Shown here in pieces: positions 12,437-64,000 of a stretch of DNA of 64,000 bases. The translations under genes were made by a program, and so were the position numbers. The stretch spans positions 294 through 64,293 of the forward strand of contig JBAUDW010000071.1 in NCBI GenBank assembly GCA_049678285.1. The letters run 5' to 3'. The notes under the pieces are model-generated. The model was not told the DNA's origin. It made no database searches and saw only the letters and a program-made list of their open reading frames with translations. Position 1 is the first letter of the stretch. Each line of letters begins with the position of its first letter. The stretch comes from Phycisphaerae bacterium. Its GTDB lineage: Bacteria > Planctomycetota > Phycisphaerae > FEN-1346.

Positions 12437-12488
12437 CCGCTTGCCTGAAGGGCCGTACCGCTGTATTCGGTTGTGCATAAAGGGCTGC

Positions 12489-12755: not shown

Positions 12756-12763
12756 AGCACACG

Positions 12764-29298: not shown

Positions 29299-29598
29299 AT
29301 GGCAGGGAAACGCAGACGGTTTTCGGCGGAGTTCAAGGCCCGGGTCGTTCGAGCGGCGCTCCGGGAAGACAAGACGCTGGCGGAGTTGGCTGGCGCGTTC
29401 GAGGTGCATCCGAACCAGATCACCGAGTGGAAGCGTCAGGTGCTGGAGGCCATGCCGGATCTGTTTGGTCGTCGCAAGCAGGCCGACGCGAAGTCGGCCG
29501 AGGAGCACGAGGCTCGGCTGTACCAGCAGGTCGGTCAGCTCCAGGTGGAACTGGAGTGGCTGAAAAAAAAAGCTCGGCAGCTTGGCATGGACGTCTGA
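29299..29598 (+). CDS. IS3-family transposase OrfA (HTH)
   Basis: [36 protein letters not shown]; ends [10 protein letters not shown] at the A9 run. Confidence 0.85.
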
Positions 29599-37163: not shown

Positions 37164-37199
37164 CGACGAGGCACGACTTCTGCACCCGAAAGGGCGGAA

Positions 37200-44135: not shown

Positions 44136-44295
44136 CTCCTGCCTGCAGTAACATCGGCCGCGTGGCGACGGCGCTTGCGGCCAATATCCCCCCGATGATA
44201 CAATTCGTGGGAAAGCCGTGCAAGGATAGCCGATAAAGCGATGGCAATCGTGTCTCTACCGGCCGTCCCTGGGGGCCCTCGCACCGTGACCCCCG

Positions 44296-45960
44296 GTGTC
44301 CCGGGGCTTTGCATCGGGCGCCTGCGCCATGGTCAATGGATCCAGTTCTTTTCACGCTCTGTGTATCGGTTTGGCCTCTGCCGATCCGTCCTGGCGCTCC
44401 CTGTTGGACAGCGAAGGCCTGCCTTGGCAGGTTGTTGCCGACAAGTCGACGGGCCCACTTCCCGAGGTGATTATTGTGCCCTGGGGCGCCGACGCGGCGA
44501 CGCGGCGGTTCTGCGGCCGTCTGGCGGCGCAGGGAAGCGCGATCGTCACGGAGCAGCGGAGGCCCGAAGGGGTTCCCGCGGCGGGTCCACAGCGCCGGTC
44601 CTTTCCGTACCACCGCGACGACTTCTCGGGCCTGCGGAGTCCCGACCTCCCGGGGGCGGTGCAGGTCGAGCACGGCCGCTGCGGGGCAGGGCAGTATTAC
44701 CTTCTGCCATTCCGTCTTGGCGAGGTGTGGCCGTCGCGCCGGACCGGCAAGAAATACATCGTCGTCGACCCCGGGCGGGAGGTTCGCCTCTGGCACCGCC
44801 AGGCGTGGGTCGTCAAGAAGAACGTCCGCCGAGTGGTCGTGGAGGTGGTCCGGAGCGCGTTCTTCGGCCGCGGCCTGCCGGTCGTCCACCAATGGTACTG
44901 GCCCGGGGAGAGCCGGTCGGTGTTCTGCATGCGCGCCGACCTGGACGGCGGGCCGCGCGAGAACCTCGCCCGTTACCTCGATGCCATCAAGCCATATGCC
45001 CGGTCGGCTTCGGTCTTCGTTTGCGCCCTCCGCTGCCTGCACGAGACGGACCTCGTCCGGCAAGCGGCCCGGGATGGCGTGGAACTGGGCAACCATACGT
45101 ATTCGCACATGGTGTTTCCCGACGCGGTGACGAACCGGGTTGACCTGGCTCGCGCCGACCGGTATCTTGCGACGCTGGGCGTCGCCCCCCAGGGGCTGGC
45201 GGCACCGGCCTATTTCTGGCATCGCTCAATGTACCCGCCTCTTACGGCACGCGGGTACCGGTACGCGTGTTGCTTCGGCCTGGATCACGACAACCTTCCG
45301 TACTACCCGGTGGTGCGCGGCCGCGTCGGGCCCATCCTGGAGATCCCTTTCCACTGCCTCGGCGACTTCTTTCCGAAGTTCGATATTCCCCTGGACGGCG
45401 AGGCGAGCCGACGCTTCTTTGCCGGGCTGATCGCCAAGAAGCACGCGGCCGGAGAAGCAATCAACCTGTACGGACACGCGGATATGGACGGCCGGTTGGG
45501 CTCGGCCCCAGGCCTGACGCGCTTTCTGTGCGAGCAGGCGCTGGGGTTGCCTAACGTCTGGACCGGTCACCTGGCGGACCTGGCTGCGTGGTGGCGGAGG
45601 CGACAGGAATCCGAGTTGGACCCCTGGTTTGACACGGACCGGGAGCGGCTTGTATGTCACACACGTCCCGGGGGAAGCGCCGGCCGAGGCGACCCCATGC
45701 TGAGCGTTCATCTTCCGGACGGGTCGTGGCGGCTGATTGGTCCTGATGCGTGTCGTGAGCCCGGAGTTGACGTGCGAGCAGTTCGCGCCCTCGCTCCATT
45801 GCGTCAGCCGGAGCCCGCGGACGTGGGCGAGGTGGTTCGGGTCGAGGAATCATTGACGCTGGCCGGCCGCTTGCGCAATCGTCGGGTGGCGCTGAAGCGT
45901 TTGGCCAGGGCTTACGCGAACGTCTACTGCCGCCGGGCAGTAACCGAGGATGGCCCATGA
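44296..45960 (+). CDS. polysaccharide deacetylase (NodB/CE4-homology) with an N-terminal extra domain
   Basis: CMRADLDGG (Asp-Asp motif) and LGNHTYSH (H-x-x-x-H-like zinc motif). 554 aa. Confidence 0.65.
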   Translation: MSRGFASGACAMVNGSSSFHALCIGLASADPSWRSLLDSEGLPWQVVADKSTGPLPEVIIVPWGADAATRRFCGRLAAQGSAIVTEQRRPEGVPAAGPQRRSFPYHRDDFSGLRSPDLPGAVQVEHGRCGAGQYYLLPFRLGEVWPSRRTGKKYIVVDPGREVRLWHRQAWVVKKNVRRVVVEVVRSAFFGRGLPVVHQWYWPGESRSVFCMRADLDGGPRENLARYLDAIKPYARSASVFVCALRCLHETDLVRQAARDGVELGNHTYSHMVFPDAVTNRVDLARADRYLATLGVAPQGLAAPAYFWHRSMYPPLTARGYRYACCFGLDHDNLPYYPVVRGRVGPILEIPFHCLGDFFPKFDIPLDGEASRRFFAGLIAKKHAAGEAINLYGHADMDGRLGSAPGLTRFLCEQALGLPNVWTGHLADLAAWWRRRQESELDPWFDTDRERLVCHTRPGGSAGRGDPMLSVHLPDGSWRLIGPDACREPGVDVRAVRALAPLRQPEPADVGEVVRVEESLTLAGRLRNRRVALKRLARAYANVYCRRAVTEDGP

Positions 45961-49956: not shown

Positions 49957-51111
49957 ATGCACATTCTGTCCTTCTCATATTGCTTTCCGCGACACCAGGA
50001 CCCGACCTGGGGGGTGTTTGTCCTCCAGCGGCTGGCGGCCCTGGCGCGCCTGGTCGACCTCGAGGTCGCCAGTCCCGTGCCGGTGTTCCCGCTCCTGAGT
50101 CGCCTGCGCGGCCGCCTGCCCGCGCCCACCGAGGAGCACGCGGGCCTTCCTGTCCATTATCCGCGGTTCCTCTACGTCCCGGGCATCCTCAAGTCCATGG
50201 ACACCCGCCTGTACGCGCGCGGCCTGCGCGGGTGGCTGCGGGAGTATCTGCGGAAGCGGCCGGTCGACCTGCTGGACGCGCATTTTATCTGGCCCGACGG
50301 CGTGGGGGTTTCGCGCCTTGCCTGGCAGGCGGGGCTTCCCTACACGATTACCCTCCGGGGCAAGATCTACCCGTGCCTTGAAGACCGCCGCATGAAGCGG
50401 CAGTGCGCGGAGGCCCTACGACACGCGGCCGCCGTCATCAGCGTCAGCACGCCGATGGCGTTTGTTGCGGCCGACCTCGGCGCCCCGCCGGAGCGGATCC
50501 ACGTGATCCCGAATGGAGTGGACACAGAGGTCTTCTCGCCGAAGGACAAGGCCTGGGCGCGCGGCGAACTCGGGCTGCCGCTCGAAGGCCGGCTCCTCGT
50601 GACCGTTGGCCACCTGAAACCAAGCAAAGGCCACGGCGAGGTGGTTCAGGCCCTGGCCGGACTGCCGCGCGACATTCGCCTGGTGATCGTCGGCGGGGAA
50701 GCCCAGAGCGGCTATCGGCGCGAGTTGATGGCTCTGGCCAGCCGCCTGGGAGTGGCAGACCGCGTCTTGCTCACCGGGAAACAGCCCTACGAGCGGATCC
50801 CGCTCTACTTCAGCGCCGCGGACCTGAGTGTCCTGGCATCCTACCGCGAAGGATGCCCGAACGTGGTACTCGAAAGCCTCGCGTGCGGGACGCCCGTTGT
50901 CGCCACGCGGGTAGGGGCCGTCCCGGACCTCTTGACACCGGGCCGGAATGGTGCCATCGTACCTGTCGGCGACGCGGAGGCCTTGGCAGGGGCCCTCAGG
51001 GACACCCTTGCGGGGGTATGGCCGCCCGACGCGGTCAGCCGATCCCCGGCGGTCCGTTCGTGGGACGAGGTGGCCGAGCGCGTCCGCCGGGTCTTCGCCG
51101 CGGTCGTGTGA
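49957..51111 (+). CDS. GT4-family glycosyltransferase
   Basis: MHILSFSYCFP N-terminus and EGCPNVVLESLACGTPVVATRVG C-terminal block. Confidence 0.75.
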   Translation: MHILSFSYCFPRHQDPTWGVFVLQRLAALARLVDLEVASPVPVFPLLSRLRGRLPAPTEEHAGLPVHYPRFLYVPGILKSMDTRLYARGLRGWLREYLRKRPVDLLDAHFIWPDGVGVSRLAWQAGLPYTITLRGKIYPCLEDRRMKRQCAEALRHAAAVISVSTPMAFVAADLGAPPERIHVIPNGVDTEVFSPKDKAWARGELGLPLEGRLLVTVGHLKPSKGHGEVVQALAGLPRDIRLVIVGGEAQSGYRRELMALASRLGVADRVLLTGKQPYERIPLYFSAADLSVLASYREGCPNVVLESLACGTPVVATRVGAVPDLLTPGRNGAIVPVGDAEALAGALRDTLAGVWPPDAVSRSPAVRSWDEVAERVRRVFAAVV

Positions 51112-51131: not shown

Positions 51132-52382
51132 ATGCTCAAGGCCGTCGCGAAGCGTCTTGTCGGGGCTCGGCTGTGGCGCGCGGCCCGGCTGGGTCGTGAG
51201 ACGCTCCGCTGCTACCGGAAGTACCTGTTCGGCAACGGCGCCGCCGACCCGCCGCGCCGCCTCGCCTATGAGGTCACCTATTCGTGCAACGCCCGGTGCC
51301 TCATGTGTCCCCTGTACGGCGAGCACCGCGACGGGCAGCGCCGGGCCGACGAGACGCCCGAGGCGCGCGAACTGACGACCGAGGAAGCCAGACATCTGCT
51401 GGAGGAATGCCGCGACCTCGGCGTCAGGCACGTCACGTTTACGGGGGGCGAGCCCTTCCTCCGTAGAGACCTGGCCGAACTGGTGACCGCCGCCGCTGCA
51501 CTCGGCATTGAGACCGGGGTGATTACCAACGGCAGCCTGTTGAACGCGCAGCGGGCCTCGGAAATCGTCGCCGCGGGCCTCCACCAACTGCACATTTCGG
51601 TCGACGGCCCCGCGGAGGTCCACGACGGCATTCGGCGCGTCCCCGGCATGTTCGCGCGCATCGACCGGAACATCGGTTCCCTTCGCGCGGCCCAGAAGGA
51701 ACTCAAACGGCGCAACCCGCAGGTCACCATCGGGTGCACCGTGTCGGCCCTGAACCAGGACCGGCTGGACGAGATCGTCGATGCAGCGGCCCGATGGCAG
51801 ACGCCCCTGAGCCTCCTGCCGATCTTCTACTCGACGCCCGCCCAGGACGACGCGACGCGCCGGATGGTCCGAATGGCCGAGGGCAAGCCGGAAGACTGGC
51901 ACCTCCCTTCCCGCGTCCGCGAGGTGGACGTCGAGGCGCTGGCGGCGTCGCTGGCCCGCACCCGCCGGGCCGCCCGGCAGCGCGGCGTCGAAGTGGAGTT
52001 GGGCATCGAGACCCGCGATGACATCCGCCGCCGCTACTACCGCCCGTGGTACGCCGACAACAACAAGTGCCTCTATCCCTGGCACACGGTTCGACTAAGC
52101 CCTGACGGCGAGGTCTACCCCTGCTCGATCATGGTGCCGATGGGCAACGTGCGAAGCCGATCGCTGGCCGCCATCTGGAATGGCGAGACCTATAAGGCCT
52201 TTCGGCGCCGGCTCCGGGGCGTAGGCCTCTTCCCCAAGTGCGCCAAGTGCTGCGCCCTGAACAAACATGACCTGATCTGCGGGTGGCTGCCCCGTTTTGT
52301 GTGGGGGGCGCCGCCGGGCTTCCGCGGACGTCCGGCAGCCGGGCGAGGTCGGGACCCGTCGGGCATCGGGGGCCCGTTTTGA
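51132..52382 (+). CDS. radical SAM enzyme with C-terminal SPASM/twitch domain
   Basis: CNARCLMCP (CxxxCxxC) near the N-terminus, a GGEPFL SAM-binding block, and a C-terminal Cys cluster (..YPCSIMVP.., FPKCAKCCALN). The start is chosen at the ATG at 51132; the longer track ORF from 50403 is read-through of the upstream gene. Confidence 0.8.
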   Translation: MLKAVAKRLVGARLWRAARLGRETLRCYRKYLFGNGAADPPRRLAYEVTYSCNARCLMCPLYGEHRDGQRRADETPEARELTTEEARHLLEECRDLGVRHVTFTGGEPFLRRDLAELVTAAAALGIETGVITNGSLLNAQRASEIVAAGLHQLHISVDGPAEVHDGIRRVPGMFARIDRNIGSLRAAQKELKRRNPQVTIGCTVSALNQDRLDEIVDAAARWQTPLSLLPIFYSTPAQDDATRRMVRMAEGKPEDWHLPSRVREVDVEALAASLARTRRAARQRGVEVELGIETRDDIRRRYYRPWYADNNKCLYPWHTVRLSPDGEVYPCSIMVPMGNVRSRSLAAIWNGETYKAFRRRLRGVGLFPKCAKCCALNKHDLICGWLPRFVWGAPPGFRGRPAAGRGRDPSGIGGPF

Positions 52383-53650
52383 GGTCGATCAAGCCGCAAC
52401 TGAAAGGGCCGACGCGCGGCGAGCCGCCATCGCGCCGCGTCCTGGCCATCGTCGGCGACTCACAGGTCGGCCTGTGGGTGGTGCGGAGCCTCGGGCGCCG
52501 CGGCCTAGCGGCGCCGGCCGTTTGTCACAGCGAGCGCGGCCTGTCGGCGCACAGCCGCTACGGGTGCGGCGCGTGGCAGATCGAGTCGCGGCCGGGCGAC
52601 GCGGGCTTCGCCGACGAGATCGAAGGGCTCGTCCGCCAGACCGGGGCCGGGTCGATCCTGGCCATCGCCGAGTCGTATCACCGGGCCCTCATCGCCTGCC
52701 GCGACCGGTTCGAGCCCGACGTCCACGTCTTCAGTCCGCCGGCTGATTGCTTTGCAAAGGCCTGCGACAAGGAGTATATGTACGACCAGGCGCGGCGGCT
52801 CGGCATCCCCGTCGCGCGCGGCACGACACTCATCAGGTTGATGACCGACCCGGCTGGCGAATCGCTGCAGTACCCCCTGGTCCTGCGCACGCGCAACCAG
52901 AACGCCGACGCGGGCGTCGCGCCCTGGAAGGCCGCCTACGCCGAGGACGCCGCGCAACTTCGCGAACTCCACGAGGCCATCCGCCCCAGCGCCGCAAACG
53001 TCCTCGTCCAGGAGTACCGTCCGGGCGTTGAGGACCACGTGCAGATCCTCATGCACCGGGGCGAGCCGTTCATGGTCGGCGAGTACATCGGCGAGCATCA
53101 CATGCCTCTGGCGGGCGGCGTGACGGTCCAGCGCATCACTTGCCGGCACAAGGACCTCATCCGCGACGCCGTGCGGCTGCTTCAGGCCATCGGCTGGGAG
53201 GGCATCGCGGGCGTCCAGTTCCACTACGACCCCCAGACGGGCAAGTACATCTTCCTGGAGATCAACCCGCGGTTCATCGGCGGCCTCCCCACCGTTATCA
53301 TGGCGGGTTTCGACGCGCCCTTCCTCCTCTGGCAGAGCCACTTCGAGCCCCAAGAGATGAAGCCGACCCCGTACCGGCTGGGGCTGCGGACCCGAATCCT
53401 GGGCGGCGACGCCAACTGGATGCTTGCGATGATCCGGGGCGACCCCCTTCCACCGGGCCAGAAGCGATTGAGCAAGGCCTCCGCTGTCGCCCGGTTCCTC
53501 TGGAACTGCGGCCCGTGGACGCGCGACGACACCTTCTGGTGGCGCGACCCCAAGCCGTTCTGGGTGGACCTGCGGTCGATGGCCCGGAAACTTCGCGAGC
53601 GGTCGGTCGACCTCATCGGGAACCCCGAGGCCCGGGAGCCCCAGCGATGA
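52379..53650 (+). CDS. ATP-grasp-fold ligase (carboxylate-amine ligase-like)
   Basis: RRVLAIVGDSQVGLWVVRSLG pre-ATP-grasp region and a core with ..YPLVLRTRNQ.., ..VLVQEYRPG.., ..GIAGVQFHYDPQTGKYIFLEINPRF... A probable TTG start overlaps the upstream stop; the start is uncertain. Confidence 0.65.
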   Translation: MRSIKPQLKGPTRGEPPSRRVLAIVGDSQVGLWVVRSLGRRGLAAPAVCHSERGLSAHSRYGCGAWQIESRPGDAGFADEIEGLVRQTGAGSILAIAESYHRALIACRDRFEPDVHVFSPPADCFAKACDKEYMYDQARRLGIPVARGTTLIRLMTDPAGESLQYPLVLRTRNQNADAGVAPWKAAYAEDAAQLRELHEAIRPSAANVLVQEYRPGVEDHVQILMHRGEPFMVGEYIGEHHMPLAGGVTVQRITCRHKDLIRDAVRLLQAIGWEGIAGVQFHYDPQTGKYIFLEINPRFIGGLPTVIMAGFDAPFLLWQSHFEPQEMKPTPYRLGLRTRILGGDANWMLAMIRGDPLPPGQKRLSKASAVARFLWNCGPWTRDDTFWWRDPKPFWVDLRSMARKLRERSVDLIGNPEAREPQR

Positions 53651-54651
53651 AGCCGGGAGTCTACCTCACCGTCGACGTCGAATGCAGCATGGGCGGTGCG
53701 TGGGCAAATCCGGCGCTGCGGCCGGTGCCCCCCAGCCGCGCCATGATGGGCGAGTACGGCCAGCGGCGGCTCGGCGTGCCGCTCATCACCGAGATCCTGA
53801 ACCGCTGCGGCCTGGCGGCCACGTTCTTCGTCGAGGCGTTCGCAGAAGAGCAGGGCTACCCGGGCCAGACGGAGCCCGTCTGCCAGTACCTGGTGGACCG
53901 CGGCCAGGACGTGCAACTGCACATCCATCCCAATCACAAGCATTACGGGCAGAAGCAGAAGGGCCTGCCGTACGTGTTTACCGACGACTTCTCCGCCGTC
54001 AGCCCCCAGGAGCAGCTGGACCTGCTCGTAGAAGGGGTCGCGCGGCTGGCCCGCTGGACCGGCCGGCCGCCAGTGGCCTTCCGGGCCGGGAACATGGCTG
54101 CCTCGGAGGAGACGCTCAAACTGCTCCCCCAGGTGGGCATCCGGATCGATTCGAGTTACGCCTTCCCGTTCGCCGGAGGCCAGTGCCGCTTCAGCCCCGC
54201 CGACCCGTACAACGGGTCCCGATGGTACGGCGGAGTTCTGGAGCTGGCGCTCTCGGGGTTCCGCCTGCCGCGCCTGCCGGGCGAGGGCTGCGCCAAGCCG
54301 CTGGACATCGTGGGCGTCTCGTTCGAGGAGTGCCGCGAGGCCATCCGCCTTATCTGCAGCGCGGGGGCCGATGCGGTCCTCATCCTGCACAGTTTCAGCC
54401 TGTTCAAGGTTCGCAACGTGCAGTACGACAGCGGGCGGATGAACTGGATCGTGGCGCGGCGCCTGCGGCGGCTCTGCGAGTGGCTGGCGGCCTACGCCAA
54501 GGAGTTCCCGACGTATACCTTCTCACGGTTGAGCCGTGCGATTGCCGATAATCAGCACGAGACCAGGGCCGTCCCCCCGCCGCGGCTGTCGGGGGCGCGG
54601 GCCCTCGTGCGCAAGGCCATCCAAGTATACAACACTCTGTATTGGACTTGA
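53647..54651 (+). CDS. divergent polysaccharide deacetylase/CE4-like hydrolase
   Basis: ATGA overlap with the ATP-grasp gene. VYLTVDVECS (DVE block as in exosortase-locus deacetylases), ATFFVEAF, LHIHPNH (His pair). Confidence 0.5.
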   Translation: MKPGVYLTVDVECSMGGAWANPALRPVPPSRAMMGEYGQRRLGVPLITEILNRCGLAATFFVEAFAEEQGYPGQTEPVCQYLVDRGQDVQLHIHPNHKHYGQKQKGLPYVFTDDFSAVSPQEQLDLLVEGVARLARWTGRPPVAFRAGNMAASEETLKLLPQVGIRIDSSYAFPFAGGQCRFSPADPYNGSRWYGGVLELALSGFRLPRLPGEGCAKPLDIVGVSFEECREAIRLICSAGADAVLILHSFSLFKVRNVQYDSGRMNWIVARRLRRLCEWLAAYAKEFPTYTFSRLSRAIADNQHETRAVPPPRLSGARALVRKAIQVYNTLYWT

Positions 54652-54692
54652 ACCTCAGCAGGCGGCGCTACGAGGCGCCGGGGGGTGGATGC

Positions 54693-56072
54693 ATGCTGCC
54701 AGTCGTTGCCCGAACGTTCGCCAGGATTCAGGAGCGGCTCCTGGGTCGGCGGACCTTCGCCATCCTCAAGGAACTCGAGGAGAGCCAGTGGTGGCCGCGC
54801 GACCGGATCGCGGCGCTGCAGCTGGATCGTCTACGGGACCTTGCGGCGTCGGCCTACGAGCACACGCCGTACTGGCGCGCGCTGATGAATGAGCGGGGGA
54901 TTTCGCCGGGCGACCTGCAGACGCTGGACGACCTGCGGCGGTTTCCGCTGCTGGAGAAGTCAACGCTCCGCGACCAGCGTGAGAACATGGTCTGGCGCAA
55001 GGAGGGCCGCCGGGTCAAACTCGTCCGCACCAGCGGCTCGACGAACGAGGCCCTCCAGTTCTATACGAGTTCCAGCCGCGAGGCCGCGATCAATGCGGCC
55101 CGCATCCGCGGCCACCGCTGGATCGGCATCAACAAGGGAGACAAGGAAGTGTACTTCTGGGGCTCGCCCGTCGAACTCCACGCCCAAGACCGCATCAAGC
55201 GCCTGCGCGACTGGCTCGTGAACGAGCCGCTCAGCGACGGCTTCGAGATCACCGAGGAGCGGGCCGTACGGTACATCGAAGACTGGAAATGCTGGCGCCC
55301 GAAGTGCATTTTCGGCTACCCGAACACTTTCCTGCTGACCGTCCAGATGGCCGAGAAGGTCGGCATCGACCTGAAGGAGGTCGGGCGTCGCGGCACGCGG
55401 CTCCTGTGCACCACGTCGGAAATGCTGGGCGAGGTGAACCGGCGGATCATCGGCGAGGCCTTCGGCCTGCCGGTCTACGACTCGTTCGGCCTGCGCGAGG
55501 CCGCCCTGGTGGGCCACGAGTGCGACCGCTTCACCATGCACACCACCGACGAGCACGTCATCCTAGAGACGATCGACCCGCAGACGCTGGAGCCGACCGG
55601 CGGCGAGGGGGAACTCGTCGTCACGAGTCTCATCAGCCGCGTGATGCCCATCATCCGCTACCGCACCGGGGACATCGTGACGCTGTCGAATGAACCGTGT
55701 GCGTGCGGCCGGTCGCTGAGGAGCCTGGTCGTGAGCGGCGGGCGGATCGCCGACTTCGTGGTCACCCGCCAGGGCAAGTGGGTGGCTGGGTACTTCCTCA
55801 TCTATATTTGCCGGAGCGTACCGGGGATCGTCAAGTTCCAGGCGGTCCAGGACCGCGTGGGCGAGGTCCGCGTCTCGCTGGTGACCGACGCGCAGTTCCC
55901 GGCCGATGGCGTGGAGCGGGTCAAGGCGGCCGTGCAGGCGCGCCTGGCGAGCGACGACGAGATCTTTGTTGAATGCGTCGACGACATCTGGCCCGCGCCG
56001 TCCGGCAAGTACCGGCCCGTCATCGGCAACCTAGCCGAGGCGTTGCGCAAGCGCGGCCGGTACGAGCCTTGA
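54693..56072 (+). CDS. CapK-like / PaaK-family adenylate-forming enzyme (phenylacetate-CoA-ligase-like)
   Basis: WWPRDRIAALQLDRLRDLAASAYEHTPYWRALM..LDDLRRFPLLEKSTLR (PaaK N-domain) and TSGSTNEALQF (adenylation P-loop-like motif). Confidence 0.75.
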   Translation: MLPVVARTFARIQERLLGRRTFAILKELEESQWWPRDRIAALQLDRLRDLAASAYEHTPYWRALMNERGISPGDLQTLDDLRRFPLLEKSTLRDQRENMVWRKEGRRVKLVRTSGSTNEALQFYTSSSREAAINAARIRGHRWIGINKGDKEVYFWGSPVELHAQDRIKRLRDWLVNEPLSDGFEITEERAVRYIEDWKCWRPKCIFGYPNTFLLTVQMAEKVGIDLKEVGRRGTRLLCTTSEMLGEVNRRIIGEAFGLPVYDSFGLREAALVGHECDRFTMHTTDEHVILETIDPQTLEPTGGEGELVVTSLISRVMPIIRYRTGDIVTLSNEPCACGRSLRSLVVSGGRIADFVVTRQGKWVAGYFLIYICRSVPGIVKFQAVQDRVGEVRVSLVTDAQFPADGVERVKAAVQARLASDDEIFVECVDDIWPAPSGKYRPVIGNLAEALRKRGRYEP

Positions 56073-56141
56073 GGTAGCGGCGAGCTCGCCAGTTTCGCGG
56101 TTCCATTACTCCTGGGGAATGCGGCTCGCGCGCGATGCCGA

Positions 56142-57206
56142 TCACGCCTGAGCGCTGTGCAGATAGCCCCTCAGGCCGCCCCGAATTGGCCGCGCCGCCC
56201 GGTTCAACAGCCATGCCACAGCAAGCACGCACGCAAGCGAGGCAAGGTAATCCAGGGAGCGGTAGCCCGTCACGCGCAGGTAGAGGTAAGGGTGCAGGAA
56301 GTAGATCTCGATGACAATGCCGGAGACCCATTGCAGCGGATTGAGCACCCGGATGGGCAGCCTGGCATCCTTCAACGACAACACCGCGCACACCGAGATG
56401 GCGATGATGAGACACGGGTTGAGCACGCCCACATCGAAGGCCATGTTCAGCCCAAGCATCACGGCCGCCAACAACCCCGCCGCAATAGCACCGAGGACAG
56501 GGCGGACGCGCACGCCCGTCCGCTGCACGAAGACGCCGAAGACGAAACTCCATGCCGTAAGCCACAGGGCATGCCCCATGGTCGCGTAGCGGTTCAGCAA
56601 AAGGGCGACCATAAGGGCCGCACCCGCCGTGATGCCAAGCGCCGCGCGCGACCGGCCCACACGCCTCAGAATAGGGTACGCGCAGTAGAACAGCAGCAGC
56701 AGCGTGAAGAACCACAGCCCGCGGCCAAAGGGGCTCGGGTTGCCAAGCCCGAACCAGTTGAGGAAGCCATTCAGCCCCAGCACATTGACAAGCGTCTGCC
56801 AGGTCCAGATGCCCGGCCTCTGCTGCACGATGAAGAGCACCAGCAGAAAGGCGTTGATGACAAGCAGGTCAGGCACCAGCCGGTGCAGTTTCCTCTCCCA
56901 GAACGGTCCAAACCTGAAACTGTCGTGGTACTTAGCCGACGTGAAATAGGCTGACGAAAAACCGAAAACAAAGAGCCCTATCGAGACCGCGACCCAGAAG
57001 AAACCGATGCCGGTCCCAAAGTGGCCCGTGAAGACAAGAAGGATGGCAACCGCCTTGGCGAGCTCAAAGTTGCGGCTCGTGTTCTTGTCGATCGCGTCTG
57101 GCACTAACACCCCAAGCCGTCTGGCGGGATGATCCCTCGCCCTCGCTTGCCGCAAGCATACAGCGGCGGCACGGTCCCGCAAGCCGGCGGATCGCTGACG
57201 CGCCAT
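56142..57206 (-). CDS. acyltransferase family 3 (OafA-like) membrane O-acyltransferase
   Basis: About 10 TM helices. ..ELAKAVAILLVFTGHFG.. and an Arg/His-containing first loop are typical of AT3 proteins. The start is uncertain (57206 Met or 57110 Val), but the ORF-track start at 57440 would overlap the next gene. Confidence 0.65.
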   Translation of the reverse strand: MARQRSAGLRDRAAAVCLRQARARDHPARRLGVLVPDAIDKNTSRNFELAKAVAILLVFTGHFGTGIGFFWVAVSIGLFVFGFSSAYFTSAKYHDSFRFGPFWERKLHRLVPDLLVINAFLLVLFIVQQRPGIWTWQTLVNVLGLNGFLNWFGLGNPSPFGRGLWFFTLLLLFYCAYPILRRVGRSRAALGITAGAALMVALLLNRYATMGHALWLTAWSFVFGVFVQRTGVRVRPVLGAIAAGLLAAVMLGLNMAFDVGVLNPCLIIAISVCAVLSLKDARLPIRVLNPLQWVSGIVIEIYFLHPYLYLRVTGYRSLDYLASLACVLAVAWLLNRAARPIRGGLRGYLHSAQA

Positions 57207-57307
57207 GCCAAGGCGCCCGAGCCGCGCGGGTCGGCCTTCCGCCCGAGACAGCGCCGTGGGTGCCGTGCAGCGGCCACGATCGGCCCGCGCCCTCCGGCAC
57301 GCGTCGG

Positions 57308-58417
57308 CTACTCGGCCTTCTTGGCATGGCCCAGGCCGGCCAGAAACTTCCAGACCTTGCGGGGGCTCAGCCGCTTGAGGTTCGACCATCTCAGGTGCGC
57401 GAGCGCCGGCCGCAGGGTCTTCACCCGGAAGTACTCCCACCGGTAGCGGCGCAGCGTGACGCCCCGGGCCAGGGCCCGGTTGACGCGGGCGATCCGACGG
57501 TCGCCGAAGCCGCTGGTGTCCGGCCCCACGCGCACACCGTCGTCGTAGGTCGCGATCTGCCCGACGCCCTGTGCGCCATCCGGCCCCAGGTCAACACGTA
57601 ACACGCAGCCGGTCCGCTCCGTGCGGTTCCACGTCAGCCGGTCGCCGTTGCTGTAGGAGATGTCGCACGCGACGAAGTTGCCCAGCGAGTAGATGATAGG
57701 GACACCGCGGTAGACCTCCAAGCCCTGGAGGACGTGCGGATGGTGGCCCAGAACGAGCGACGCCCCCGCTTCGGCCAAGGCGTGGGCCTGCACAATCTGA
57801 GAGGGCGACGGAATGGACAGCCGCTCCTCGCCCCAGTGGAGCGAAACGACCACATGGTCCACCTCGGCCCGCAGGCGGCGGATGCGCTCGACGAGATTGG
57901 CCGTCTCCAGCGGCGCAGCGCCTGGCACACTGGGCCCCGCGAAGCCGCTCGGTCCGGTCCGAGGATCGGCAGCCCCCAGAAACCCCACTCGTACGCCGCG
58001 CACTTGCACGATGGCTGGCTCGGCTGCTTCCCGCAGATTGTCACCAGCGCCGAAGTAGGTGATGCCCAACTCATCGAGCAGCCAGCGGAGCCGGTGGAAC
58101 CCCTCGGCCAGGCAGTCGAACATGTGGTTGTTGGCCAGCGAGACGGTCGTGATGCCCGCCGTAGCGACACCCCGCACGAGGTCTTCCGTCGCGACCACGC
58201 GCGGCTCTGTGGGCACCGTGGCTCCGCTGGCGGGCAGCGTGCACTCGAGATTGCCCACGATCAGGTCGGCCTCCTGAAACAGAGGCCGCACCTCTGCGAA
58301 GATCGCAGCATTCTCGCGCGGAGGGTCTGTGCCCGCAGGGCCGGCCGCAAGTAGCAGATCGCCCACAGCCGCCAGGCGGACACCTTTGTTCTCGACACCC
58401 GTAGTCGCTGGCCGCAT
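57308..58417 (-). CDS. CapA-like metallophosphoesterase (PGA_cap family capsule-synthesis protein)
   Basis: LAAVGDLLLA, LIVGNLECTL, VSLANNHMFD, VVVSLHWGEE and LVLGHHPHVLQG: the conserved metal-binding blocks of CapA-family proteins. Confidence 0.7.
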   Translation of the reverse strand: MRPATTGVENKGVRLAAVGDLLLAAGPAGTDPPRENAAIFAEVRPLFQEADLIVGNLECTLPASGATVPTEPRVVATEDLVRGVATAGITTVSLANNHMFDCLAEGFHRLRWLLDELGITYFGAGDNLREAAEPAIVQVRGVRVGFLGAADPRTGPSGFAGPSVPGAAPLETANLVERIRRLRAEVDHVVVSLHWGEERLSIPSPSQIVQAHALAEAGASLVLGHHPHVLQGLEVYRGVPIIYSLGNFVACDISYSNGDRLTWNRTERTGCVLRVDLGPDGAQGVGQIATYDDGVRVGPDTSGFGDRRIARVNRALARGVTLRRYRWEYFRVKTLRPALAHLRWSNLKRLSPRKVWKFLAGLGHAKKAE

Positions 58418-58757
58418 TCTCCCCGATTCCGTTACGCTCGGCATTGCGATGGGACACAGAATAGGCCATCGCCCCAAGTAGCAGGGCGTGGGCGACTCCG
58501 CGGCGGGCTACAGCAATGCCTGATGCGAGCCCCCATGCCGTGACGATATCATACAGCGGGCCGGCCGAAAGTGGAAGCACCGTACCGCCAGGAGCCTGAT
58601 CGTTCCATGCTGACCCGGCGGCGTGCCTCCCAGACCAGACGCGAGGATCTTGCAGTGACCGCAGGTTCGAGACGATGGTTCACAAGGCGCTGCGGTATGG
58701 CGCCAGAACCGGCCGCGGTCACCAACCATGAGCTGACAGCAAAGGGCGAGGAAGTCA

Positions 58758-59810
58758 ATGGCTGACGAGCGTACAGGCGCAAGAGACTGTTCCGTCGCCG
58801 TCTCGACGGAGCCGCCCGATTGGTCGGATTACCTTGCCGCAAGCGCCCAGGCTACCATCTACCACGACCCGCGCTGGGGCCAGATCATGGCCTCGGCGTA
58901 CGGCAATCGCCCCTACTTCCTGACGGCGCGCTACGAGGGTCGGGTCGTCGGCATTCTGCAACTCGTGGCCCAGAAAGGCCTCCCTTTCGGGCTGCACCTG
59001 TGCAGCCTGCCCTACTTTGACGCCGCGGGGGTTGTGGCTGACGACGAAGGGGCGCGGCGTGCGCTCCTGGGTGAGACTCGGGCACTCATGGAACGCTTGG
59101 GCGCGGAGTGGACTGAACTGAGGCACCTTTCCTGCTGCGACCCTTACCTTCCGAACCGCACGGACAAAGTGACCATGTGGCTGGAACTTCCTTCCAGCGC
59201 CGAAGGCGCTTGGAACAGCCTCACCACCAAGATGCGGACCAAGGTCCGCAAGGCTCAGAAGGCGGCCGTGAACCTGGAACAGGGGCACAGCGAACTGGTG
59301 GGCGATTTCTACACCATCTACGCTCGAACCATGCGTGACTTGGGCAGCCCCCCGCACGGCCAACGGTTCTTCCGGCTGGTGTGCGACACGTTCGGACCCG
59401 CTGTTCGGCTCTTCGTCGTCCGCTCGGAGGGGCAGCCCATTGCATCGGCATTGACCCTCATGGACCGGCAGGGGTTTCACGTCCCGTGGTCGGGCAGCGA
59501 CCACCGTGCGGCCGGTGGCTCGGCGAACAGGTTCCTCTTCTGGTCCATGATCGCCTACTCCAGCGACGCCGGAGCCGCTAAGTTCGACTTCGGCCGTAGC
59601 ACTCGGGGCTCGGGAACGCACGAGTTCAAGAAGGAGTGGGGGACCCAGGAGATTCCGCTCTGCTGGGAGTACCTCTTGCCGCTGGGCGGCACCGTTCCCG
59701 ACCAACGCCCGGATAGTCCCAAGTACCGGTTACTGAGTGCGATGTGGCGGCGGCTGCCGCTAAGCCTCGCCTGCCTGATCGGTCCGCGAATCATCGCGAG
59801 GTTGTCATAG
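58758..59810 (+). CDS. FemAB-like (GNAT-fold) acyl/aminoacyl-transferase, second copy
   Basis: Same architecture and conserved blocks as the 42355-43362 gene (..IYHDPRWGQIMASAYG.., ..TLMDRQGFHVPWSGSD.., ..FKKEWGTQEIPLCWEYL..). Confidence 0.6.
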   Translation: MADERTGARDCSVAVSTEPPDWSDYLAASAQATIYHDPRWGQIMASAYGNRPYFLTARYEGRVVGILQLVAQKGLPFGLHLCSLPYFDAAGVVADDEGARRALLGETRALMERLGAEWTELRHLSCCDPYLPNRTDKVTMWLELPSSAEGAWNSLTTKMRTKVRKAQKAAVNLEQGHSELVGDFYTIYARTMRDLGSPPHGQRFFRLVCDTFGPAVRLFVVRSEGQPIASALTLMDRQGFHVPWSGSDHRAAGGSANRFLFWSMIAYSSDAGAAKFDFGRSTRGSGTHEFKKEWGTQEIPLCWEYLLPLGGTVPDQRPDSPKYRLLSAMWRRLPLSLACLIGPRIIARLS

Positions 59811-60257: not shown

Positions 60258-61232
60258 ATGGCAGACACCTGGCTGGTGACCGGCGGCGGGGGGTTCATCG
60301 GGTCGAACCTCGTCCGGGCGCTGCTCGAAGAGGGCCGAAGCGTCCGCGTCCTCGACAACTTCTCCACCGGCTTCCGCGAAAATCTCCAAGAGGTCGCGGG
60401 CGACGTTGACCTGGTTGAGGGCGACATCCGCGACGCCGACGCGTGCCGCAGGGCGTCCGCCGGCGCCGAGGTCGTCTGCCACCAGGCGGCCATCCCGAGC
60501 GTTCCGCGGAGCATGGCGGACCCGCAGGGCTGCTTTGACGTCAACATCGTCAGCACGCACAACATGCTCATGGCCGCACGCGACGCGGGCGTCCGGCGGT
60601 TCGTCTTTGCGGCCAGTTCCAGCGCCTACGGGGCGGGCGAAGAACTGCCGAAGCGCGAGACGATGCCCGTCCTCCCCCTCAGCCCCTATGCCGCCGCGAA
60701 GGCCGCGGGCGAACTGCTCGTCGCCACGTGGCACCGGGCGTTCGGCCTCGAGACGGTCAGCCTCCGGTACTTCAACATCTTCGGCCCGCGGCAGGATCCT
60801 GCCAATCAGTACGCGGGCGTCATCGCGGCCTTCGCGTCGCGGATGCTTCGCGGCCAGCCGCCGATTATTTACGGTGACGGGACGCAGTCCCGTGACTTTA
60901 CGTTCGTGGAAAACGTCGTCCGCGCCAATCTCCTCGCGGCCGAGGCCCCGGAGGTCCACGGCGAGGTGGTCAACATCGGCTGCGGCGAGGCGACCGACCT
61001 GAATCAGATGGTGCGGGACTTTAACAACCTGTTGGGGACCGACCTGGATCCGATCTACGAGGCCCCCCGCCCGGGCGACGTGAAGCACTCGCTGGCCGAT
61101 GTCTCGGCCGCCCGCGACCTGCTGGGCTACGAGCCGACAGTCCGTTTCGCCGAGGGGCTTCGGCGGACCATCGACTGGTATCGGTGGGCGCTGGAGACGG
61201 GCTACGGCGGCTGGGCGGCCGCGGGGCGATGA
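60258..61232 (+). CDS. NAD-dependent nucleotide-sugar epimerase/dehydratase (GalE/WbpP-like extended SDR)
   Basis: VTGGGGFIGSNL, the S..YAAAK catalytic dyad, and NIFGPRQDP. Confidence 0.85.
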   Translation: MADTWLVTGGGGFIGSNLVRALLEEGRSVRVLDNFSTGFRENLQEVAGDVDLVEGDIRDADACRRASAGAEVVCHQAAIPSVPRSMADPQGCFDVNIVSTHNMLMAARDAGVRRFVFAASSSAYGAGEELPKRETMPVLPLSPYAAAKAAGELLVATWHRAFGLETVSLRYFNIFGPRQDPANQYAGVIAAFASRMLRGQPPIIYGDGTQSRDFTFVENVVRANLLAAEAPEVHGEVVNIGCGEATDLNQMVRDFNNLLGTDLDPIYEAPRPGDVKHSLADVSAARDLLGYEPTVRFAEGLRRTIDWYRWALETGYGGWAAAGR

Positions 61233-61253: not shown

Positions 61254-62903
61254 TCAGCGTCGGCCGGCGGACCGCACCTCTTCCTTGATCCGCTGGATGT
61301 GTCCGCGGCCGAGCGCTTTGATCTCGCAGCCGAGTTCGAAGTAGCGGCGGATCTTCTCGTCCGGCAGGATCCCGAAGCAGTCCACGACGGCCAGCGGGCC
61401 ACCCGCCCAGCCGACCACCTCGTCCGGATCGAGGTCCATGTAGGGGGCGTGCCGGACGGCCAGGACGAGTGCCTCGACGCCCTTGAGCGCCTCCTTGAGG
61501 TCCTTCTCGACGCGGATGTCGGCCAGTCCCTCCTGGTTCCGGAAGAACCGCGAGAGGGAGTGCCCCGGCGCGGGATACTCCTCCTGCCGCTCGAGTTCGT
61601 ACCAGTGGTCGACGTAGGGGTCGTGGACGCGGATCTCGGCGCCCATCTCGGCGAGTTTCCGGACGACCAGTTCCGAGCCGCTGTAGCGGGTGTCGCCGAC
61701 GTCCTCGCGGTAACTGGCCCCGGCGATGCAGACGAGGGACCCGGCGATGTATCGGCCCATGTTGCGGAGGGCGTCGCGCGCCAGTTCCGCCGCGTGGAGC
61801 GAACGCGTGTCGTTCGTGTCGATGGCCTCGGGCGTGATGCGGAAGACCTCGTCGCCATCCTCGAATCCCAGGATGTGCTTGTAGGCCCAGTAGCCCAGGC
61901 CGCCATCCTTCGGCAGGCAGTACCCGCCGATGCCGGGCCCGGGGAAGATGATGTTCGAGTGCGTCGGGCGGACCTTGATCGCCTGGACCACCTTGATAAG
62001 GTCCACGCCGTTGCGTTCGGCAAAGAGGCTCCACTCGTTCAGGAATGCCAGGATCGTCGCCCGGTACGAGTTCTCGACGACCTTCGTCGTCTCGGACTCG
62101 ATCGGCCGGTCCATGACCGTCAGGGGATAGTCCTCGGTGTTCAGGACCTCGTGGAGGAACCGGACGACGCGCTGGCGCGCCTCGGGGTTGCAGCCCGAGC
62201 AGACCCGCCAGAAGTCGCGAATCGAGGAGACGTACTCGCGGCCGGGCATGACCCGCTCGAAACTGTGCGCCAGAAGCGGCGGCGACCCGATGCCGCGCGA
62301 CTGGAAAGCCTTCCGCATGATCGGATAGGCCACGAACTCGGTCGTTCCCGGGGCGACCGTCGTCTCGATGAGGACGAGGCACTCGGGACGCACCTTCTCG
62401 CCGATCGTGCGCATCGTCGCCTCGAGGGCCGACATTTCGGCCTCGCCCGACCGCATGTGCCCGAGGTCGTGCTTCGTGTAGTCGCACTGCACGTCCACGA
62501 CCACGCAGTCCGCCAGCGACAGGCACTCGCTCGTGTAGGTCGCCGTGAGCGTCTTCTTCTCGAGGACGCACCGGGCGATCATCGGATCGACCTGGGGGTC
62601 CTCCGCCTTGACGGGCGACTCGCCGCGGTTCAGCAGCGGGATCTTCCAGTAACTCCGGGTGCTCGGCCGCTGGCACCCGATGACGAACTTCGCGGGCTTG
62701 CCGGTCTTTTTGTCGACGGTGTCGGCAATGATGGCCGCCATGACAGCCCCCACAAAGCCGACGCCCATGACGACGACGACCTCCTTGCCCTCTTGGCGCG
62801 CTGCGTCGGCCAGGCCGCGAATCCGCTTGAACTCGGCCTCGTACTCGTCGCGTTTCGGAATCGCAAACCGTTCACCCGCCGGGCTGACTGAATAGTCCGA
62901 CAT
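61254..62903 (-). CDS. UDP-glucose/GDP-mannose dehydrogenase-family nucleotide-sugar dehydrogenase (long form)
   Basis: VVVMGVGFVGAVMAAII (NAD-binding GxGxxG), GPGIGGYCLPKD (catalytic Cys block), and a C-terminal UDPG_MGDP_dh_C-like domain. Confidence 0.8.
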   Translation of the reverse strand: MSDYSVSPAGERFAIPKRDEYEAEFKRIRGLADAARQEGKEVVVVMGVGFVGAVMAAIIADTVDKKTGKPAKFVIGCQRPSTRSYWKIPLLNRGESPVKAEDPQVDPMIARCVLEKKTLTATYTSECLSLADCVVVDVQCDYTKHDLGHMRSGEAEMSALEATMRTIGEKVRPECLVLIETTVAPGTTEFVAYPIMRKAFQSRGIGSPPLLAHSFERVMPGREYVSSIRDFWRVCSGCNPEARQRVVRFLHEVLNTEDYPLTVMDRPIESETTKVVENSYRATILAFLNEWSLFAERNGVDLIKVVQAIKVRPTHSNIIFPGPGIGGYCLPKDGGLGYWAYKHILGFEDGDEVFRITPEAIDTNDTRSLHAAELARDALRNMGRYIAGSLVCIAGASYREDVGDTRYSGSELVVRKLAEMGAEIRVHDPYVDHWYELERQEEYPAPGHSLSRFFRNQEGLADIRVEKDLKEALKGVEALVLAVRHAPYMDLDPDEVVGWAGGPLAVVDCFGILPDEKIRRYFELGCEIKALGRGHIQRIKEEVRSAGRR

Positions 62904-62907
62904 GCCG

Positions 62908-64000
62908 TCACCTCCGTGTCTTGTGCCATTCCTCGGCTGAACCGCGCCCCGGCGCCGGGCCGTCGCCCGACAAGCCTACCGAAAAGCGCCCTGGAATACC
63001 ACCCTTCACCGGGCGACTGTCGGTGCTGTCAACGCAAAGTAGAAATGTCCGCTTTTTTTTGAAGGGTCGGCGCCAGGGGTGATCCTCCGAGGGACGATAA
63101 GGCGTGGGGGCCGGAGGGCCGGGGGGTGGCCCGGAGGCCCCCACGCCCGGCCGCGGCGGCCGCGGCGCCTGGTCCGGCGGCACCTCGTGGAATCGCAGAT
63201 ACCGTCCCCGGAACCGCAGCCGCATCGACCCGTCCAGTCGTTCCTCCACGATCACCTTGGATCCTCGCAGGCCGCCCGCAATGGACCGCCGTTCGATCTG
63301 ATACCGATGCCCCCCGTGCCGCACCGTGTAATCATTGGCCACTGTGCGGACGGTCTGAATGCTCAGGATGGCCGCCAGAGGATAGCCCTTCGCCGAGCGG
63401 TGGGCGTCCACCGAGGAAGCCGGTCGGACCGTGAACCGTTCGTTGAGCATCGGCTCGTACTCGGTCTCCAGGTAGGCGTTGGCTCCGGGGATGTCCGCGA
63501 TGCCCCGCAGCCGCAGTTCCTTCACGAGCCGGTCCTGGTCGGTCTGGAAGGACCGCTCCACGCGACCCTTGGCCTGAGGCGAACCCGCCGGGATGTACTC
63601 AATCCCCAGGTCCCGCAACGCCCGCCCGAACTGGGTCACGGCCTGACGGCCTTGGAGGGCCTCCTCGGCCGAGGGAGGCCGGTTGACCTTGAAAATGCTA
63701 TCCCGGTCGGCGTAAATCGCCCCTGGCCGCCCATGACGCCGCAGCCACAGGCCCAGCATCTGGAGGTTCGCTTCCGTCGTGTCGGACGCGAAGAACCGCT
63801 TCACCTGCCGCCCCGTCGCGTCATCGATCATCGACACCAGGACCGGCTCGGCTTGGCCGCGGCCCTCGAACCAGGCGTGCTCGCTGGTGTCCATCTGCAC
63901 GAGTTCCCCGAACGACGGCCGCCGTGGACGCCACAGGTGCACCTCCCGGCGGGGCCGCCGGGGCTTCCAGATCCCCTCGGCGATCATCCACCCCCGCAGC
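62908..64000 (-). CDS. DDE (rve superfamily) transposase, partial (N-terminus beyond window end)
   Basis: ..ELVQMDTSEHAWFEG.. (first Asp region), ..YADRDSIFK.., ..GSPQAKGRVERSFQT.. (E + K/R of the DDE triad). No N-terminal HTH region is present in-window, so the gene must continue past 64000. Confidence 0.6.
   Translation of the reverse strand, partial: LRGWMIAEGIWKPRRPRREVHLWRPRRPSFGELVQMDTSEHAWFEGRGQAEPVLVSMIDDATGRQVKRFFASDTTEANLQMLGLWLRRHGRPGAIYADRDSIFKVNRPPSAEEALQGRQAVTQFGRALRDLGIEYIPAGSPQAKGRVERSFQTDQDRLVKELRLRGIADIPGANAYLETEYEPMLNERFTVRPASSVDAHRSAKGYPLAAILSIQTVRTVANDYTVRHGGHRYQIERRSIAGGLRGSKVIVEERLDGSMRLRFRGRYLRFHEVPPDQAPRPPRPGVGASGPPPGPPAPTPYRPSEDHPWRRPFKKKRTFLLCVDSTDSRPVKGGIPGRFSVGLSGDGPAPGRGSAEEWHKTRR

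Follow-up and report, generated by a model that had tools for sequence, protein, structure and literature searches.

We analysed a 64-kb stretch of DNA (the window) from a metagenome-assembled genome (MAG; 67% GC) with the NCBI label Phycisphaerae bacterium. The window is an exosortase-type exopolysaccharide (EPS) locus that contains a block of six genes, coding for a radical S-adenosylmethionine (SAM) enzyme, an ATP-grasp ligase, a CE4-like enzyme, a CapK-like enzyme, an AT3 acyltransferase and a CapA-like protein (Table 1). Our main finding is that this block is composite and consists of a conserved core plus two lineage-specific insertions, the radical SAM and AT3 genes. The core is made up of GT4b, a glycosyltransferase (GT) of family GT4, the ATP-grasp, CE4-like and CapK-like enzymes, plus the CapA-like and often a FemAB-like protein. 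With slightly better than even confidence we propose to read the region as a segment for glycan tailoring, composite in make-up, that belongs to an exosortase-linked EPS operon of the Wzx/Wzy type, and that the core installs and decorates an acidic amino-sugar. Most plausibly, the core attaches a non-sugar substituent of the amino-acid type to the glycan. The enzyme classes and the general logic of the core are already known. This specific trio and core and the radical SAM family are uncharacterised, carry only generic NCBI names and pass no curated family model.

The composite make-up of the block is evident from the distribution of its genes. The window proteins were compared by tblastn with the 80 loci returned for relatives of the CE4-like protein, and 64 loci (64 species genomes) having a CE4-like orthologue of at least 50% identity were counted as core loci; for each gene the denominator is the number of loci with enough flanking DNA. 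The CE4-like family is large and strongly conserved, with relatives in 199 of 185,579 species genomes. Genes for the ATP-grasp, CE4-like and CapK-like enzymes form a syntenic trio in the 64 species genomes, the proteins being 52–89% identical. The recurring order is Wzy/GT, GT4b, ATP-grasp, CE4-like, CapK-like, CapA-like (−), FemAB-like (+) and exosortase (+), and in all loci examined the core genes sit among GT4, Wzy and flippase genes. Carriers of the core are found in Planctomycetota, Desulfobacterota, Stieleria and others, and the cultured ones are Stieleria mannarensis, Malonomonas rubra, Desulfobacter curvatus, D. latus and Desulfoprunum benzoelyticum.

According to the original prediction, made from the letters of the window, the six genes form one unit that supplies a dedicated pathway for adding a non-sugar substituent to the glycan. 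Several of the genes do form a conserved module, for which a substituent of the amino-acid type is the most plausible, and the trio and core are conserved in their neighbourhood across the 64 genomes. This does not extend to all six genes, and the six-gene block is not conserved as such: the radical SAM gene is absent from 64 of 64 core loci and the AT3 gene from 62 of 64, and the radical SAM family occurs elsewhere without the core. AT3 genes that are not orthologous to that of the window are found elsewhere in core-type loci. The independent distribution of the radical SAM and AT3 genes would also be expected if all six genes were functionally unlinked passengers of an EPS locus, adjacent by chance. 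We regard such a lack of linkage as very improbable, since the order of the trio is kept across phyla in more than 45 loci at the identities given above and the genes in the window show translational coupling.

A further gene accompanies the core in one group of carriers. In 15 loci of the Desulfobacterota type a Peptidase_M55 gene (the DppA-type D-aminopeptidase family) directly follows the CapK-like gene, for example at 12433–13467 in locus L041, and genes coding for a tetratricopeptide-repeat (TPR) and a right-handed beta-helix protein often come after it, ahead of the CapA-like gene. This gene is absent from the Planctomycetota versions of the core and from the window. Its position after CapK in the Desulfobacterota versions supports an amino-acid or peptide substituent.

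Regarding the block itself, the open reading frames (ORFs), gene calls made independently for identical MAG contigs and searches of Pfam, NCBIfam and PDB agree with the six genes, strands and enzyme classes first predicted. The block begins at 51132, as predicted, and ends at 58417 instead of 58477, the calls for the AT3 and CapA-like genes being shorter than the longest ORFs. Start–stop overlaps had been proposed throughout the first four genes. Two of them are real, namely a 4-nt TTGA overlap at the radical SAM/ATP-grasp junction, where the TTG start of the ATP-grasp gene lies over the radical SAM stop codon, and a 4-nt ATGA overlap at the ATP-grasp/CE4-like junction. The CE4-like and CapK-like genes, however, are separated by a 41-nt gap, homologues of the latter aligning from the ATG at 54693. 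The spacing between GT4b and the radical SAM gene is 20 nt. In this GC-rich genome the GC content at third codon positions (GC3) is normal for the window in every block gene, which argues that the tight packing reflects operon structure and not chance ORFs. Base composition gives no sign of a recent horizontal gain of the radical SAM gene, the GC (0.691) and GC3 (0.86) of which match those of its neighbours. The GC of the AT3 gene is lower (0.616), probably due to membrane-protein bias. A scan for promoters and terminators between 49.8 and 60.3 kb gave a signal no higher than the shuffled expectation.

Table 1. Genes of the six-gene block and other features of the window, with the presence of orthologues in core loci
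Feature	Coordinates	Strand	Evidence or remark	Presence in core loci
GT4 glycosyltransferase GT4b	49957–51111	+	PF00534/PF13439; directly before the radical SAM gene	35/45 (at least 45% identity)
Radical SAM enzyme with twitch-like auxiliary-cluster domain	51132–52382	+	PF04055 80.5 bits (threshold 29.5); PF13186 55.4 bits	0/64
ATP-grasp carboxylate-amine ligase, core	52379–53650	+	PF15632 43.6 bits (threshold 29.1)	51/54 (directly upstream of CE4-like; 56–81% identity)
CE4-fold polysaccharide deacetylase-like enzyme, 334 aa, core	53647–54651	+	PF01522 22.1 bits (gathering threshold 23.1)	
PaaK/CapK-like adenylate-forming ligase, core	54693–56072	+	PDB PaaK 2y27 E=2e-27; PF27533 CapK_C	46/48
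AT3 membrane acyltransferase, 320 aa, variable accessory	56142–57104	−	PF01757 43 bits (threshold 31)	2/64
CapA/PGA_cap metallophosphatase-fold protein, frequent core member, converges on CapK	57308–58417	−	PF09587 216.7 bits (threshold 27)	25/35 (loci with enough downstream DNA)
FemAB-family XrtA/PEP-CTERM-associated protein, VimA-like	58758–59810	+	TIGR03019 304.9 bits (cut-off 260.35); adjoins the block	9/35
TviC-like NDP-HexNAcA 4-epimerase/dehydratase family enzyme	60258–61232	+	NF011728 TviC 248 bits, below cut-off	
NDP-sugar dehydrogenase (makes uronic acid), UDP-ManNAc dehydrogenase-like	61254–62975	−	TIGR03026 187.9 bits (cut-off 189.8)	
Exosortase fused to C-terminal EpsI domain	5452–7179	−	TIGR02602 108.8 bits (cut-off 105.55); TIGR02914 60.1 bits (cut-off 42.8)	
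Two probable PEP-CTERM cargo genes	10004–11278, 11390–12436	+	tails ...IPEPVTMAGLLLGIGGLVTYVRKRRTA and ...VPEPVTMAGMLLGIGCLGSYLRKRR	
Transposases, two IS3-family and one IS701/IS4-like	7348–8346, 29564–30673, 13674–14975	−, +, +		
Two AsnB-like amidotransferases	37164–39059, 39961–42312			
FemAB-like/Acetyltransf_6 protein, Vim-like second set	42355–43362	−		
GNAT protein, Vim-like second set	43410–44255	−		
Deacetylase, 520–540 aa, Vim-like second set	44290–45960	+	PF01522	
Wzy_C/O-antigen-ligase-like membrane domain fused to stp2-like GT4, 873 aa	47326–49947	+	membrane part TIGR03097-like, 121 bits (below cut-off)	
Probable group II intron remnant, 80 aa	59805–60047	−	GIIM (group II intron maturase) domain	

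In NCBIfam scans of all block proteins no equivalog passed, so that no function can be transferred by name. In the ATP-grasp protein the Mg-binding E-I-N-P-R motif is intact (FLEINPRF). For the CE4-like protein the AlphaFold 2 (AF2) model (predicted local distance difference test score, pLDDT, 87) has a CE4 fold (Foldseek E=1e-10, probability 1.0), the top matches being HP0310 and the M. smegmatis deacetylase 3rxz with TM-scores of 0.53–0.64. Its invariant motifs are D10-V-E12 and H92-I-H94, in comparison with TFDD and H[ST]xxH of canonical CE4 enzymes, and no NCBIfam family matched it at E<=0.01, TIGR03006 (the PEP-CTERM-locus polysaccharide deacetylase) included.

The adenylation motifs TSGST and SGK are intact in the CapK-like protein, and the CapK_C hit comes from a precomputed record on the identical protein. 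That it belongs to the PaaK superfamily is clear from the match to 2y27. It had been thought that the substituent could be an aromatic acyl group. In such an acyl-coenzyme A (acyl-CoA) route the PaaK-like enzyme would make an aromatic or other acyl-CoA and AT3 would move the acyl group onto the EPS, and it is true that the closest solved structures are phenylacetate-CoA ligases and that the AT3 gene adjoins the CapK-like gene in the window. Yet the AT3 orthologue accompanies the CapK-like gene in only two of the 64 loci, and the PaaK equivalogs score 106–123 bits against cut-offs of 646–700 (TIGR02155, 106 bits, cut-off 646.3; NF041878, 122.7 bits, cut-off 700). Moreover, the CapK-like protein VpsH adds glycine and not a group derived from acyl-CoA (PMC13463779). 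Given these scores and the VpsH precedent we reject a PaaK/phenylacetate function for the CapK-like protein, and the acyl-CoA route as a whole is scarcely probable.

The metal motifs GD, NNH and GHHPH are intact in the CapA-like protein. Its sole solved relative is the MslH epimerase 8gq9, and the score of NF038314 is 74.8 bits against a cut-off of 700. Since ATP-grasp enzymes can polymerise amino acids and the PGA_cap match is strong, one may ask whether the CapA-like and ATP-grasp proteins make a poly-amino-acid or peptide polymer independently of the glycan, similar to poly-gamma-glutamate or RimK products; the Peptidase_M55 gene of the Desulfobacterota versions would fit with this too. We give this explanation little credence. 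The ORFs of the window that were scanned include no gene of the CapB/CapC type, and an N-terminal membrane anchor is not obvious in the CapA-like protein as called. Roughly 30% of core loci lack CapA, and in every case the core genes are surrounded by genes for GT4, Wzy and flippase.

From the domain identities, synteny, distribution and motif conservation that were observed we infer the following substrates, order of steps and chemistry of each enzyme. The neighbouring nucleoside diphosphate (NDP)-sugar dehydrogenase and TviC-like epimerase would make an N-acetylhexosamine (HexNAc)-uronic acid; the TviC-like enzyme probably supplies the uronic-acid sugar. GT4b would add the HexNAc-uronic acid residue to the lipid-linked repeat unit. 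Activation of a carboxylate, and its linkage by amide bonds to an amino acid or an amino alcohol, would fall to the CapK-like enzyme and/or the ATP-grasp ligase, and most likely the residue would come to bear one or more amino acids or amines in amide linkage. Before or alongside this amide decoration the CE4-like enzyme would strip the N-acyl group and free the amine, which the FemAB-like enzyme would then aminoacylate. The CapA-like metalloenzyme may process the appended group by epimerisation or phosphate removal. The radical SAM enzyme, the gene of which is inserted between those of GT4b and the ATP-grasp ligase, may perform an O2-independent radical oxidation, decarboxylation or epimerisation of the same sugar, and the AT3 O-acyltransferase is the second add-on; both would make modifications particular to this lineage. 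Amino-acid decoration of a uronic-acid sugar is supported by three analogues that are compared below, VpsH, Cj1438C and the Wbp/Vim pathway.

It should be said that several observations weigh against this mechanism. Every NCBIfam equivalog score falls well short of its cut-off, and the activities proposed for the single enzymes are therefore extrapolations from remote analogues. The TupA-like model, to which Cj1438C belongs, is unmatched by the ATP-grasp protein, and in the Pfam scan only ATPgrasp_Ter, CPSase_L_D2 and ATP-grasp_3 were hit. The CE4-like protein need not be a de-N-acetylase, because its catalytic DxE and HxH motifs are non-canonical. The dehydrogenase and TviC-like genes lie outside the conserved core elsewhere, and therefore the acceptor sugar may differ. 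The structural neighbours of the radical SAM enzyme also include the peptide modifiers SkfB, SuiB and PqqE, of which SkfB and SuiB score similarly.

Two motifs of the radical SAM enzyme, CxxxCxMC (C52/C56/C59) and GGE (G105-G106-E107), are invariant in 24 family members. A C-terminal SPASM cysteine cluster had been predicted for it, but only five cysteines are conserved in this part of the protein (C313, C331, C370, C373 and C374). Their spacing, C313-x17-C331-x38-C370-x2-C373 with C331 lying in GX4C, follows the BtrN-like twitch pattern. Compared with the 7-Cys SPASM motif CX9-15GX4C...CX2CX5CX3C...C, the family alignment lacks the CX5CX3C segment as well as the last Cys. In addition, positions 310–375 of the family profile match BtrN twitch residues 164–235 with 60 bits. 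The enzyme is thus twitch-like in its cysteine pattern, with one predicted auxiliary cluster; the Pfam SPASM model PF13186 also covers twitch domains, and among the profile-based checks that had been proposed for all families this is where twitch was favoured over SPASM, the others assigning the families, failing the PaaK equivalogs and finding CapK_C. The best single-sequence match in PDB is BlsE (E=1e-16, 22% identity), other best matches being SkfB and the BtrN twitch domain, and BlsE also has the best TM-score (0.59 query-normalised, 0.74 BlsE-normalised), sharing CxxxCxMC and GGE. Equivalog scores are below cut-off, with 82.5 bits against 400 for BlsE (TIGR04466) and 117.7 against 500 for AhbD (TIGR04545).

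The genomic contexts examined for this family are of one kind. When 1.84 billion cluster representatives were searched exhaustively with phmmer, only about 26 scored more than 200 bits and 293 had E<=1e-30, and a word-indexed search gave about 22 close relatives. All ten contexts examined are glycan or sugar-nucleotide loci, usually without the core. The radical SAM gene stands beside the core in the window and in locus L090 (a 68% relative). Seven of the other contexts hold glycosyltransferase, Wzy, flippase, exosortase or sugar-epimerase genes. More specifically, the relative in P0007 has GT4, AsnB and Wzy genes as neighbours, along with an exosortase; in L091 it is directly downstream of a 49% GT4b orthologue, in L092 directly downstream of a TviC-like epimerase (a 47–54% homologue of that of the window), and in L007 amid Wzy, GT, deacetylase, formyltransferase and GFO_IDH genes. 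In P0010 and L093 relatives are found near sugar nucleotidyltransferases, L093 having the nucleotidyltransferase only, while those in L173 and L174 belong to glycan loci with B12-radical SAM, GT4 and flippase genes. Together with the cysteine pattern, the motif shared with BlsE and the short N-terminal part, these contexts point to a sugar, not a peptide, as substrate. We conclude that the enzyme is one of glycan or sugar tailoring, and it is most plausibly tied in function to the sugar handled by GT4b.

A maturase acting on a peptide or protein, either the PEP-CTERM cargo or the product of an unannotated precursor gene of a ribosomally synthesised and post-translationally modified peptide (RiPP), has to be weighed here, as the original prediction had counted such a modification among the possible roles. 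The Pfam SPASM match, the presence of SkfB, SuiB, PqqE and CteB among the top Foldseek and profile matches and the PEP-CTERM cargo genes within the window would speak for it, with or without the neighbouring genes taking part. On the other side are the five cysteines with their BtrN-like spacing and the family contexts amid GT4, Wzy, flippase and sugar-nucleotide genes, some of them with no visible exosortase. In the AF2 model (pLDDT 88) two helices (residues 2–33) precede strand 1 of the core, and the roughly 40 residues ahead of the radical SAM core are too few to hold a RiPP recognition element (RRE). Nor could a precursor ORF fit in beside the gene, which is flanked by the 20-nt gap and the 4-nt overlap. 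On cysteine count, RRE and genomic context we reject the SPASM/RiPP maturase reading and consider peptide chemistry improbable for this enzyme.

Some further observations were made on the radical SAM relatives. In L090 (1–3850) the sequences coding for the ATP-grasp C-terminus and the CE4-like N-terminus occur twice, once on either side of the gene, with 94%/89% identity upstream and 81%/79% downstream; a cassette may have been inserted and the junction duplicated, or the assembly may be at fault. In L173 (6559–12648) a distant member (33% identity) is found in a glycan locus where the radical SAM genes number four, of which one is B12-binding and the other three match the SPASM model; they are interleaved with a GT4 gene and flanked by PMT/GT-C-type glycosyltransferases. 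A metagenome scan with the patterns CNxxCxMC and TGGEPFLRxD, which proved too generic for this purpose, returned unrelated radical SAM/SPASM genes (identity <=34% along most of the protein) in 79 of 80 loci and a family member only in L093. A literature search for radical SAM enzymes in exosortase EPS clusters gave only a Geobacter transcriptome paper, the radical SAM genes of which are unrelated to this locus.

The predicted exosortase EPS setting of the block was borne out: the generic exosortase model, the FemAB model TIGR03019 and the stp1 model TIGR03087 all pass their cut-offs in the window, and two PEP-CTERM cargo genes are present. The exosortase falls under the XrtA-specific cut-off (TIGR03109, 116.4 bits against 208). 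Among the specific models it matches the XrtD type best, with 207.6 bits against a cut-off of 400, and it may be an unnamed exosortase subtype. The tails of the two PEP-CTERM genes are near-identical (…I/VPEPVTMAG(L/M)LLGIG…RKRR) and roughly 3 kb separates the genes from that of the exosortase; they probably code for exosortase cargo. Neither matched an NCBIfam family at E<=1e-8. Genes for export, chain length, ATPase and tyrosine kinase are found at 21–26 kb, with NCBIfam scores below cut-off.

In several genomes the core is followed by CapA (−), FemAB (+) and exosortase (+). This order, together with the exosortase and cargo genes of the window, suggests a specialisation of the mechanism proposed above, and not a contradiction to it: the core could make an aminoacyl- or peptidyl-sugar on the EPS, the free amine of which is the nucleophile for exosortase transfer of PEP-CTERM proteins. 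The model for this is the Wbp/Vim linking sugar that serves PorU of type IX secretion (T9SS). The FemAB protein of the window passes TIGR03019, a family that VimA matches, and a role of this kind has been speculated on by Veith et al. (PMC7468200); a CapK-like protein was correlated with PEP-CTERM as early as 2006 (PMC1569441). Nevertheless, an exosortase orthologue lies within 10 kb in only about seven of the 64 core loci (three of the 29 with at least 8 kb downstream), and FemAB is found in only nine of 35. To our knowledge no exosortase acceptor has ever been identified, which also counts against the proposal, and on balance we hold it to be rather unlikely. Still less likely is the joint claim that the core trio with CapA and FemAB builds the exosortase acceptor and that the twitch radical SAM enzyme represents a new anaerobic glycan-modifying class, such as one that epimerises at C5, decarboxylates or dehydrogenates a HexNAc-uronic acid in the lipid-linked repeat unit. 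The general form, decoration of a uronic-acid sugar with an amino-acid type substituent, remains our preferred reading.

Other genes of the window were noted as follows. Exosortase orthologues of 49–67% identity come after FemAB in core loci L011, L012, L016, L024, L055 and L065. Three transposases lie in the EPS locus, and rearrangement mediated by insertion sequences (IS) is suggested by the distance of about 50 kb between exosortase and core in the window, as the exosortase comes right after FemAB in other genomes. The probable intron remnant is located between FemAB and the TviC-like epimerase. The best NCBIfam match of GT4b is TuaC-like (151 bits, below cut-off). The two parts of the fused 873-aa ORF are separate genes in most related loci. 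Upstream of the block is a Vim-like second set of genes, which is preceded by the two AsnB-like amidotransferases, and enzymes forming amide bonds are unusually numerous in this locus.

Compared with what was first proposed, the finding is less exotic, in that there is no six-gene unit and the radical SAM enzyme probably does not carry out peptide chemistry. At the same time, amino-acid decoration of polysaccharides is poorly understood, and the core is a much larger, multi-phylum and highly conserved module that cultured carriers make testable. Its position next to FemAB and exosortase in several genomes makes it a concrete candidate for a builder of the exosortase acceptor. The radical SAM family, small, associated with glycan loci and without a characterised member, offers a new possible case of radical chemistry on glycans.

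Comparison with known systems places these genes as follows. BlsE, a decarboxylase of a uronic acid (cytosylglucuronate), carries the unusual CxxxCxMC motif (PMC3715490). Both BlsE and BtrN resemble the radical SAM enzyme of the window and act on sugar-like small molecules, but the gene of the window lies in an EPS operon and not in an antibiotic cluster. We know of no described exosortase gene set that includes this radical SAM enzyme. The CapA-like protein shares the PGA_cap domain and metal motifs with MslH, a CapA-like C-terminal epimerase of lasso peptides, and with PgsA/CapA; the poly-gamma-glutamate systems differ in having CapB/CapC partners. The XrtA EPS set of Haft resembles the window in its exosortase, PEP-CTERM cargo, FemAB, stp1, AsnB-like, chain-length, kinase and export genes. 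The window differs in its EpsI-fused exosortase, which fails the XrtA cut-off, and in core enzymes without curated family models. That the combination stands outside the canonical PEP-CTERM set was nonetheless overstated in the original prediction, since a 'possible CapK' was listed among PEP-CTERM-correlated proteins in 2006 (PMC1569441) and the core adjoins FemAB and exosortase in several genomes.

In Campylobacter jejuni the ATP-grasp enzyme Cj1438C amidates the C6 carboxylate of glucuronic acid (GlcA) with phospho-amines in the growing polysaccharide, after which the phosphate is taken off by the phosphatase Cj1435 (PMC11800379). Cj1438C belongs to the TupA-like type of ATP-grasp enzymes; the models matched by the window protein are ATPgrasp_Ter and CPSase-like ones. 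The Cj1435 step suggests a possible role for the CapA-like protein with its metallophosphatase fold, although Cj1435 is, as far as we know, outside the CapA family. VpsH of Vibrio cholerae, a CapK/PaaK-like protein, is genetically required for the glycine amide on L-GulNAcA in the lipid-linked intermediate of the Vibrio polysaccharide (VPS; PMC13463779), and this genetic assignment of 2026 is the first CapK-like example of amino-acid decoration. Like the CapK-like gene of the window, vpsH lies in a Wzx/Wzy EPS cluster with GT4 enzymes and a HexNAc-uronic acid pathway. Partners of the ATP-grasp, CE4-like and CapA types are unreported for VpsH, which is likened to the window enzyme by its published description. 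In Porphyromonas and Tannerella, the joint product of VimE (CE4), VimA (TIGR03019-like) and WbpS (AsnB-like) is a uronic sugar carrying a 2-N-aminoacyl group, the acceptor of sortase-transferred proteins, and Veith et al. speculate that exosortase systems use the same aminoacyl-sugar acceptor scheme (PMC7468200). The classes of the Wbp/Vim pathway (CE4, FemAB-like, the GT4 enzyme VimF, AsnB-like and uronic-acid synthesis) are all present in the window. Wbp/Vim stands beside a sortase-like anchoring system (PorU), whereas the sorting enzyme of the window is an exosortase. The CE4-like protein belongs to a distinct, strongly divergent CE4 family, with 13–19% identity to solved CE4 structures and with VimE compared by description, and the core of the window adds ATP-grasp, CapK-like and CapA-like enzymes, with which the Vim pathway dispenses.

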